From positions 126,482,001 through 126,546,000 of the forward strand of contig CM059431.1 of NCBI GenBank assembly GCA_030390025.1: 64,000 nt of DNA. Direction: 5' to 3'. Positions within the stretch are counted from its first letter, which is position 1, and each line of letters begins with the position of its first letter. The notes beneath the pieces were generated by a model. The model ran no database searches, was not told the DNA's origin, and saw only the letters and a list, made by a program, of their open reading frames with translations. Source of the stretch: Squalus acanthias. Taxonomy: Eukaryota. A program made the translations under genes and the position numbers. Positions 57,453 through 59,803 of this stretch are shown piece after piece.

Positions 57453-59803
57453 TCACACGGTGCTTTCATCGTGCACGCGCACGTAACGTTCTCGCCACTC
57501 TCCCGTGTTTTCATGCTTGGTGAGGCGCTTGTCTCTTTTACAATGTACGACCAATAGGTACACTACAATGAAAACTTGGCATACGACTAAAATGTGGGAG
57601 GCTATTCTGATCCATGAAGGCACTTCAATATTGGTGAACAGATTCCACCACGGTGGAACTACTATATCCAGAATGTCTGTCCCTATTTCGACAGTTTTCT
57701 GTTCTAATGTGTAAAAATGTTTCTGTGACACCGCGACGGCTTTTAAAAGTTTGGTGAGGTGTTCAGGGAGAGGGGGAATGAGGTATCCGAAATGCGCGAC
57801 GAATCGCTGCAAGTCGGTGAAATTCTCTTTTACTGTGAGATGAACAGTGGATGGTTCAGGGATTGGGATAATTCGCTGTTGTGCTACTTGAACTTCCGCC
57901 CTGGGTTTAAAACAGAAACTGCTGTCACTCACCGGACACCGGCTACGGTTTCCATGCTGGTAGTGTTGCGCTGCAGTGGTAACACAATATGTTCCACCCC
58001 CGATGTATGCTACCTGCGGAGGCACATGATCTTGTGCCATTGCCTCCATGGTGCAATTCATGGATTGGCGCCAGTCGTTCTGAACCCGCACTGTGGTGTT
58101 AAAAAGGCATTCAAGTGCTGGGGGCACAGTATTATGTGTGCTCCCCTGCCACGACAACCAGAGAGATCTGTACCTGTCATCGTTTGCTCCCAGCGGATGA
58201 CGTAAGGTGGAACCGCTGCATAACGAATGTGGGCTCCCCCCTGAATGACACCAATGTTCTCTACCCGATACACCGGGGCGGGCTTTGCTGTGTCGCCCAA
58301 AACCGGCATGCGTAATACTATTCCCATAATAGTATGGTTTGATCGTCCGCAGTCCACGGGGACTGGGTACGCTTCTGAAGCTAGCCTGAGTTGGCACGGA
58401 CTTAATGCGTTCTGAAAAGGGTGGAGCGCCCGCAGGTGTTTGTTACTTATCCAGGACGGAACCAAACCTTGTTTTAAATCCTCCAAATTACTGCGGCCCT
58501 CGCCCAGTAACCACGCCCCGTAAAGCACGCACACCTCGTTCTGCGCAGCTTGATCGGATGCATTCCGATCTTCCCTAATCAGGGCATTTACCGTCTTTGC
58601 ATGTTTCTCCAACTCTGCTATAATTTCCTTTAAATGGAGAGTCATGGCTTGGTCCTCGTGTCGACCCGACCCTACCACTTTATTCTCATCTGTTAGAATG
58701 TCTTTTAATTGTGTCTTTAAACCATTAATCTGGGTCTGCAGCTCCACACTGTCTAGAGCGTTGACCACAGATATACCCGTGTTAAAAGCAGTGAACGCAT
58801 CGTTCACCAAACCCCTTCTTTGCCTCCCTGCTTGATTCAAAACTTCTTGTGGTGCGGTGTACAAACTTGTTTTATCAATTTCCGCGAAATCGAATTCGTA
58901 AAATTGTCTGAACATCTTGGTCAACAGGACCTGATACAACTGTTCCGTCTTTTTGGGGCACCACTCTGGTAACCGCACCTCGGTGAGATTTAAAATCACC
59001 GAGGCCACCGCGTAATGTACCCCCTGAAATAGTATCTGGTCTGTGGGGACCAGTACCAAACCATTCCCGGGTCCCTTACTAGTTTTAGGGCACCCTTCTT
59101 CCTCAGCTAGAACCACCGGAATCGTGGGCGGGGCTTTGCGTGGGCACGTAATGAGCTCAGTGGCATTTACTGGGATCGGGGAGAATGGGGCTCCGCACCC
59201 CCTGGTGCTCGCATCCCACCTCATCCCCTGTCCGTTATCCTGCCATTGATTAATAAAAAATATGGAGATGCCTTTGGGGCAAACGTACTTTGACCCCCAC
59301 ATACATACATAAATTCCCTCATCCGGTTCCCACCATTTGTCCCAACAGACTTTCACTTGTCCGTCTGTCCCCGTAATTGTCCGATGGGTATTATTACCCA
59401 GTCGTTCCCACTCGACCGACGATTTCCTCATAGTGTTGCTCAGCTTTCGCAGCCACCACCATCGGCTCAATGGGACCTTCCCACTACAATTCAAACAAAT
59501 CCGTTTGCCGACGGTGACGCTGATCCTGGGTGCGATGATCCTTACTTTGGGGCACAGTAAAGAAGTCTCTTTGTAGGCAAACCCCGATGTGCTAGAATAC
59601 TCCGTTGAGTTCGTTCCCAGCCATCCTGGCCACCTTCCCTTGTGGAAATAGGTGCTGGTCTCCTCTGCCTCCCGTCTTCCGGTCCCATCCACCGCGATGG
59701 GGGCCGTGTCCCCGGAACATCCAAACACCACGACATCCTTGGTGCGGCCTCGATAGGCCAATCCACATCCGATTACCCCGAGCAATACTAGAATTCGTTC
59801 CAT
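57453..59803 (-). CDS. env: Envelope/fusion glycoprotein with Ig-like domain (~783 aa if a 1-nt frameshift at about 58061 is repaired)
   Basis: Signal peptide MERILVLLGVIGCGLA; ICLNC..WWW..DEGIYVC; RQRR|GLVNDAFTAFNTGISVVNAL; heptad repeats; Cys-rich region; many N-x-S/T sequons; TM IASHILVVCQVFIVVYLLVVHC. Confidence 0.88.

Follow-up and report, generated by a model that had tools for sequence, protein, structure and literature searches.

A predicted F-type fusion protein in a young shark endogenous retrovirus family with an ordinary-retrovirus reverse transcriptase

The env gene described here very probably encodes an F-type class I fusogen, with a likely Ig-like receptor-binding domain ahead of the predicted fusion core, in an endogenous retrovirus (ERV) family with an ordinary-retrovirus reverse transcriptase (RT). 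The gene lies in a stretch of 64,000 nucleotides from Squalus acanthias, referred to as the window, where it is frameshifted and carried by a pol-less copy. Its features are as follows.

57453-59803, minus strand: env gene, with the ATG at 59803; a single frameshift near 58,060 breaks it in this copy
59756-59803, minus strand: likely signal peptide (hydropathy peak at residues 1-19)
59294-59551, minus strand: likely Ig V-like domain of the N-terminal subunit (Pfam Ig_3 E 0.39-0.73, below cut-off)
57650-59070, minus strand: predicted F-type fusion core, comprising N-terminal strands, long helices, two Cys-rich beta domains and a membrane-proximal helix; bounds approximate, taken from the model of a naturally unbroken copy and interrupted here by the frameshift
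58814-58825, minus strand: furin-type site RQRR (residues 327-330), followed by GLVNDAFTAFNTGISVVNAL
58754-58813, minus strand: likely fusion peptide, moderately hydrophobic, its role suggested by placement after RQRR
57549-57605, minus strand: transmembrane helix (hydropathy), followed by a 31-residue tail

A first-pass annotation of this DNA had described RQRR at 58825-58814 with GLVNDAFTAFNTGISVVNAL behind it, a post-cleavage subunit of ~450 residues, and a Cys-rich region ahead of a transmembrane helix and short tail, and all of these were found. In the window copy the Cys-rich region is split over two frames by the frameshift: the first (stop at 58058) holds GTDLSGC and IILCPQH, and the second (stop at 57453) holds NCT, YIGGGTYCV, FCF, the transmembrane helix and the tail. 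The 783-residue frame that the annotation had obtained by repair exists naturally; 12 genomic loci were fetched, including that of the window, and env was unbroken over 783 codons in all 11 of the others. One of these (locus L002, protein P0002) was used for whole-protein work. Here, the transmembrane helix spans residues 734-752 (hydropathy 2.55), the post-cleavage subunit has 453 residues, and a motif check found neither CX6CC nor a QNR-type CKS-17 motif, as the annotation had also reported. The stretch of 20 residues following RQRR has small and aromatic residues, and its hydropathy never peaks above 1.0 in a 19-residue window. An RxK/RR site stands at the furin position in many Env homologues, and the furin site and Cys pattern are preserved in homologues of only 20-30% identity. 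Among the 11 unbroken copies, a non-independent set selected for similarity to the query, pN/pS was 0.10 (27 silent and 11 replacing variable codons), and on this codon evidence the env family is under purifying selection. Pfam scans assigned no family to either env piece and nothing above cut-off to the unbroken protein.

The remaining features of the element that carries env are the following.

55384-55387, no strand: target-site duplication GCCG, 4 bp; the second copy lies just outside the window end
55388-57012, minus strand: 3' LTR, about 1.62 kb, with TG...CA ends
57013-57023, minus strand: short purine-rich tract adjoining the 3' LTR, a likely polypurine tract
59817-59818, minus strand: likely env splice acceptor AG, 13 bases upstream of the env ATG (one contig joint in run X1 and sequence context)
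60090-61238, minus strand: pol remnant, consisting of the first protease codons, a 250-base insert (60960-61207) and the pol 3' end; about 3.6 kb of pol is missing
61235-61241, minus strand: gag stop TGA followed by CTAG, in frame with pol (10 of 11 junctions)
61239-63050, minus strand: gag, an open frame encoding a coiled-coil-like stretch and a single CCHC knuckle (zf-CCHC E 0.31, below cut-off)
63032-63049, minus strand: primer binding site; 18 of 18 bases can pair with the host tRNA-Arg(TCG) at its 3' end, CCA included
63055-64000, minus strand: 5' LTR, continuing 662 bases past the window
63505-63506, minus strand: likely splice donor GT within the 5' LTR (the same contig joint and sequence context)

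The two LTRs differ by one mismatch and one 17-base gap over 1626 columns. When the host genome (3.7 Gb) was searched with env at the DNA level, 40 of 3118 candidates were scored and all 40, the window included, matched at 98% or better. The same was observed with the pol-replacing insert and with RT (40 of 40 scored for each), counts that are lower bounds and not copy numbers. The window element is a pol-less, env-retaining copy of a young, abundant, multi-copy ERV family, and as a single copy it is ordinary and broken. Close relatives of the family are also present in other samples: sequencing runs of five organisms (X1-X14) contained 43-59% of its sampled words, and in the four runs that were aligned all 30 bins were covered, mostly at 90-99% likeness.

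The pol-replacing insert was present in 6 of the 12 loci (L001-L012), and in four of those six the frame was open over 369-386 codons. The 250-base insert has an internal repeat and codes for a coiled-coil-like stretch in frame with gag readthrough; judged from the junction sequences, readthrough at the gag stop into pol is likely. A pol-bearing form of 11 kb encodes protease, RT, tether, RNase H and integrase, a dual RNase H arrangement. Its pol extends well beyond integrase as an acidic, proline-rich tail. The pol-bearing copies L013-L018 stand in head-to-tail arrays with a spacing of about 11.0 kb, in which neighbors have an LTR in common, and in several the pol or env frame is interrupted. 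At 63050-63032 (minus strand) the primer binding site and the first ATG of the gag frame overlap, and this frame stays open back into the LTR. Genes for the tRNA-Arg(TCG) that fits the primer site form long tandem arrays that repeat about every 1623 bases (contig C26, L059-L061), and the corresponding pattern gave 422 genome matches. A GT-AG joint from the LTR to a point 13 bases before the env ATG was seen in a single contig, which has 21 bases on the shorter side of the joint and comes from a run only presumed to be RNA; this joint is a hint of splicing and not proof. No RNA data set is recorded as containing this stretch.

An AlphaFold2 model of the unbroken Env was built from 41 sequences (mean pLDDT 60, pTM 0.46), the beta domains lying mostly at 75-95 and the N-terminal 220 residues mostly below 50. 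Foldseek comparison of this model with the PDB placed the F proteins of hPIV3 (E 3.6e-11), RSV, henipavirus and Newcastle disease virus first, and all 38 matches listed were paramyxovirus or pneumovirus F. With VIA-align the top match was post-fusion Nipah F (Z 10.8, rmsd 4.8 over 289 residues, Env residues 245-662), and foamy virus Env was found at Z 8.0. The F-type matches from paramyxoviruses, pneumoviruses and baculoviruses had 7-17% identity to Env. No gp41- or TLV_coat-type chain was among the structural matches listed by Foldseek against the PDB or by VIA-align. Matches in BFVD included lispivirus, baculovirus F, paramyxovirus F and walleye epsilonretrovirus Env. In the same set the Env of WEHV-1 (E 6.6e-12), the Env of WDSV (E 3.7e-9) and a fish filovirus glycoprotein matched the F-type model. 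Independently of any model, an Env profile of 31 sequences searched against the PDB gave foamy virus Env as its top three hits (E 0.001-0.009, over the Cys-rich region) and one short gp160 helix at E 1.4; a PDB search with the single sequence gave nothing below E 0.9.

These results bear out the earlier proposal of an F-type class I protein distinct from gamma-type Env, on which the Env profile scored at most 4.1 bits, as on delta-type Env. The claim that Env is likewise not beta-type agrees with the fold result, on which it rests, the comparison set being one without beta-type Env. The annotation had inferred membership of one lineage from the F-like features, but F-type Env is not diagnostic of that lineage, foamy, snakehead and walleye virus Env being F-type too. 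Going beyond it, the model suggests that the F-like fold starts ahead of the furin cut, at about residue 245 (about 59070), and that an Ig-like domain likely lies upstream. A search of 1.84 billion representatives returned 44 Env homologues, and in other searches the nearest named relatives came from skate, sawshark, catshark and sevengill shark, in agreement with the cartilaginous-fish host that had been suspected from the letters. An ESM Atlas search gave one chordate cluster at 0.84, a lead only. Three gene models (P0004, P0005 and P0060) fuse env pieces to Niban, cadherin or F-box sequences and are probably annotation artefacts; the env piece of P0060 gave a weak baculovirus F match (E 0.001, below cut-off).

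The region ahead of the F core was modelled alone from four sequences (pLDDT 58). Its top matches were Ig-superfamily chains, with Z up to 5.4 and a Foldseek E of 0.004, although Z values below 8 lie within the range common for matches between beta-sandwiches. Motifs of an Ig V-like domain are visible in the sequence, namely a Cys, a Trp and DEGIYVC, comparable to the B-strand Cys, C-strand Trp and DxGxYxC of such domains, and weak Ig matches were obtained in two relatives, P0007 (Ig_3 E 0.012) and P0062 (V-set E 0.045). Given the low-confidence model, these motifs and the matches in relatives, the N-terminal region is probably an Ig-like domain. Comparison of Gag and of the Env N-terminal region with the reference viruses yielded no useful match except the zinc knuckle.

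For the placement of the family, 37 reference loci were fetched as natural records, of which 15 were used in domain comparisons and fewer in each tree. They included L021 (10,688 bases, its RT being the SnRV row of PMC7947760), L050 (its RT being the WDSV row), genomes of gamma, delta and foamy type, and three contigs bearing the lokiretrovirus (loki) RT motif. A first RT tree lacked named references, and placement did not draw on it. The two RT trees used had 23 and 19 rows, with only two or three loki-type rows from fish-like contigs and without ERV-L or CmiERV. Both trees put the loki-type rows outside all other retroviruses (support 98/94 and 98/93) and grouped the family with frog and coelacanth rows (89/89 and 93/94). 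RT identity was 51-54% to the frog, coelacanth and one further relative, 44% to SnRV, the best value among the named viruses tested, and 34% to loki-type RT. The family's RT and all 14 other retroviral rows read LPQG or MPQG, in contrast to PFG in two loki-type and two gypsy rows; all 24 published loki RT rows also read PFG (one is gapped beside it), a mark that is our reading of the published alignment and not a stated criterion. Approximately unbiased (AU) tests on RT plus connection rejected a grouping of the family's own row with loki-type rows (p 0.004) and of its whole clade with them (p 0.03); with RT alone neither was rejected (p 0.067 and 0.15).

On these RT sequences the family groups with ordinary retroviruses, among frog and coelacanth ERVs. 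Because the RT trees and the AU tests on RT plus connection set loki-type rows apart, it is not a lokiretrovirus, and the nearest label is an SnRV-grade, clade Huo-like ERV. The link to SnRV had support of 52/86 in the best RT tree and was an open fork in both the 23-row and 19-row trees. Thus, the RT phylogeny that the first-pass annotation had proposed for the pol-bearing helper places it outside the lokiretrovirus branch, and the suggested membership in an errantivirus (Metaviridae) lineage fails, the RT being canonically retroviral and not of Ty3/gypsy type. Membership in the Spumaretrovirinae is likewise not indicated, as the RT falls outside the foamy clade in the trees and Gag carries a CCHC knuckle. 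When viral contigs were scanned with a protein seed no RT relative emerged, and an exact pattern for the loki RT motif gave no match in the host genome or the viral contigs, an exact pattern being unable to show absence. 'NYNRIN-like' names and their hosts had been considered as a lokiretrovirus sign and were dropped, the published Loki-Lch RT being clearly unlike that of coelacanth P0011.

Env and integrase give a different picture from RT. Against 192 open reading frames of the 37 reference loci, the Env profile scored 64 and 59 bits (E 6e-20) on loki-type Env, 7-24 bits on foamy, 18 on SnRV and 17 on WDSV Env. By hhalign the loki-type Env matched at 98.3% over 359 columns and SnRV at 94.3% (E 1e-7). 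P0002 alone reached only E 1e-4 to 8e-4 against loki-type Env, and the profile signal owes much to distant members such as P0044. As far as sequence comparison goes, the likeness to loki-type Env is real and the best among the named lineages tested. The relation to lokiretrovirus Env claimed by the first-pass annotation therefore stands as sequence likeness, whereas membership in the lokiretroviruses does not, given the RT position; the Env phylogeny it had suggested (17 rows, with P0040 left out) has open deep forks, with loki, snakehead and walleye virus Env on long branches.

The tether is 41% identical to loki-type and 28% to snakehead virus, and the integrase 49% versus 38%. In the integrase tree, from an alignment of 162 columns only and with NYNRIN itself absent, the loki-type row joined the frog and coelacanth rows (98/96) and the family's own row stood with two other rows (80/88). 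AU tests rejected a grouping of all PQG retroviruses without loki (p 0.036) and kept one of the family, frog, coelacanth and loki rows (p 0.29). In lokiretroviruses the integrase is close to CGIN1/NYNRIN; relatives of the family carry 'NYNRIN-like' names.

One explanation is that the family is a mosaic, with an ordinary-retrovirus RT and an integrase-Env block exchanged with lokiretroviruses by recombination, in either direction, rather than inherited from old. The contrast between the loki-type integrase, which joins the frog and coelacanth rows, and the loki RT, which lies outside, argues for this, as does the rejection of a PQG-retrovirus clade without loki, and the Env likeness points likewise. 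Against it, the Env tree is an open fork with long branches to loki, snakehead and walleye virus Env, the family's own integrase lies outside the loki group in the best tree, slow change in the lineage could give equal scores, and the integrase alignment is short. We regard such an exchange as an appreciable possibility, clearly short of even; it is compatible with the main statement and differs on history alone. Old shared descent and exchange of the block cannot be told apart, as the data here fit both.

Since an F-like, loki-resembling Env and a polymerase of the ordinary-retrovirus group occur in one family, F-type Env likely dates further back, and occurs in more retroviruses, than has been supposed. 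A more far-reaching reading, which we hold tentatively and put only a little below an even chance, is that the F-type fusogen is the ancestral retroviral Env and that gamma- and beta-type Env are later replacements, with no separate gain of loki Env from a negative-strand virus. The shark-frog-coelacanth lineage would then be a bridge, because it combines an ordinary-retrovirus RT with an Env and integrase common with lokiretroviruses, and the Ig-like domain fused before F would make a one-protein attachment and fusion machine. Wang and Han considered four possible origins of retroviral Env and favored separate gains, on the ground that loki Env and other retroviral Env have no visible similarity (PMC7947760, PMC9040795). 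That premise is removed by the match of an ordinary-RT element's Env to loki-type Env at E 6e-20 and by the core common with snakehead and walleye virus Env, and the question of Env origin therefore becomes testable by a structure-guided Env tree. Because this young and abundant family evolves under purifying selection, natural material for structural work exists.

That the family is instead a true lokiretrovirus, extending the lineage to cartilaginous fish, is highly unlikely and already largely refuted. The Env profile and hhalign results, the dual RNase H, the failure of the RT-alone AU tests to reject it and the retained integrase grouping with frog, coelacanth and loki rows speak for it. 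It is opposed by PQG in the family's RT versus PFG in the 24 published rows, by the RT trees and the RT-plus-connection tests, by an RT identity of 34% to loki-type against 44% to SnRV and 51-54% to the nearest non-shark relatives, by a primer site unlike that of loki-type contigs, and by loki Env being without the N-terminal extension. Least probable of all is that env is a relic without fusion activity, or a membrane protein co-opted by the host: the frameshift in the window copy and the weakly hydrophobic fusion peptide would fit this, but env is flanked by near-identical LTRs and a target-site duplication, its family is dispersed, all 11 other copies are unbroken with a pN/pS of 0.10, and the furin site and Cys pattern are kept at 20-30% identity.

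Among known systems, SnRV resembles the family in its PQG motif, its length of about 11 kb and its homologous Env core. SnRV uses tRNA-Arg as primer, and the primer site of L021 opens with the same six bases as the family's tRNA-Arg site. Both have an in-frame gag-pol stop, UGA in the shark family and UAG in SnRV (PMC13517186). The two differ in Env length (783 residues versus a 1134-codon frame) and in the family's integrase and tether being nearer loki-type. According to PMC12193657, SnRV has an Env tail of 136 residues and accessory open reading frames; the family's tail has 31 residues, and downstream of env, as far as the 3' LTR, the coding strand has no frame above 55 codons. SnRV-related ERVs (clade Huo, class III) include CmiERV lineage I of elephant shark (PMC4422223, PMC6001957, PMC12193657).

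With lokiretroviruses the family has in common an F-type Env with the top sequence score, a dual RNase H and a related integrase, and an in-frame gag-pol stop occurs in both the family and loki-type contig L056. The tether and second RNase H found in the family are common to all retroviruses. Differences lie in the RT motif and tree position, the primer site of loki-type contigs, and an N-terminal Env extension of 240 residues that loki Env lacks. None of the three chondrichthyan genomes screened contained lokiretroviruses, according to PMC7947760. The 'NYNRIN-like' ERVs of frogs and coelacanth (P0007, P0009-P0011) belong to the same RT clade at about 51% RT identity, and their N-terminal Env regions align poorly with that of the family; the P0007 gene model ends in a signal-peptide and Ig-like piece that by eye resembles the start of Env homologue P0062.

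Foamy viruses have a long LTR, as does the family, and a splice donor inside the LTR, the same feature as the family's likely donor. Gag of the Spumaretrovirinae is without CCHC, in contrast to the family's Gag, which has the knuckle and reads into pol, and the RT does not group with foamy viruses. Foamy Env (8OZH, 8RM0, 8RM1; PMC11468914) has an F-like core in common with the family's Env, which differs in its short signal peptide and N-terminal domain. The F proteins of paramyxoviruses, pneumoviruses and baculoviruses and the F-type Env of errantiviruses (PMC13524379) have the same predicted core fold and order of furin site and fusion peptide, to which the family's Env adds the N-terminal region with its likely Ig-like domain; it also sits in a dual-RNase H retrovirus, unlike errantivirus Env with its Ty3/gypsy element. 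F-likeness has been reported for loki Env (PMC7947760) and foamy Env (PMC11468914); no F-type call for the Env of the SnRV clade was found in the literature available to the search, although Calcraft 2024 (Cell), Hart 1996 or Repbase ERV4 may cover it.

From established class I biology, and with both folds predicted, we infer the following course for a homotrimeric Env. A spliced RNA from the LTR would be translated to Env, furin would cut at RQRR, and the N-terminal subunit, like F2 on F1, would remain attached to the 453-residue subunit. On a trigger, the helix behind the fusion peptide would extend, the fusion peptide would enter the target membrane, and the helix would then fold back onto the membrane-proximal helix as a hairpin. 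Paramyxovirus F works with a separate attachment protein. Unlike it, the family's Env would likely attach to cells itself through the Ig-like domain, a role proposed because of the analogy to the Ig-like receptor-binding domains of gamma-type Env described in a preprint (bioRxiv 10.1101/2024.03.17.585361). The window copy itself would yield a truncated Env without the transmembrane helix. The 11-kb pol-bearing copies may supply the enzymes that replicate pol-less ones (trans-mobilization), because LTRs and primer site are common to both.

Other repeats were observed beside the element in the window. A 620-base repeat is present in two copies 96% alike (49362-49985 and 54451-55070) and has 74% inverted likeness to the LTR start at 56819-57005; these may be pieces of a related LTR. 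A DNA transposon-like unit occurs in three copies 88-96% alike (49974-54280, about 27400-31560 and about 41300-45510). By motifs, we take the open reading frame at 52619-53785 (minus strand) to be a Harbinger/PIF transposase and that at 50368-51144 (plus strand) to be presumably its Myb/SANT partner.
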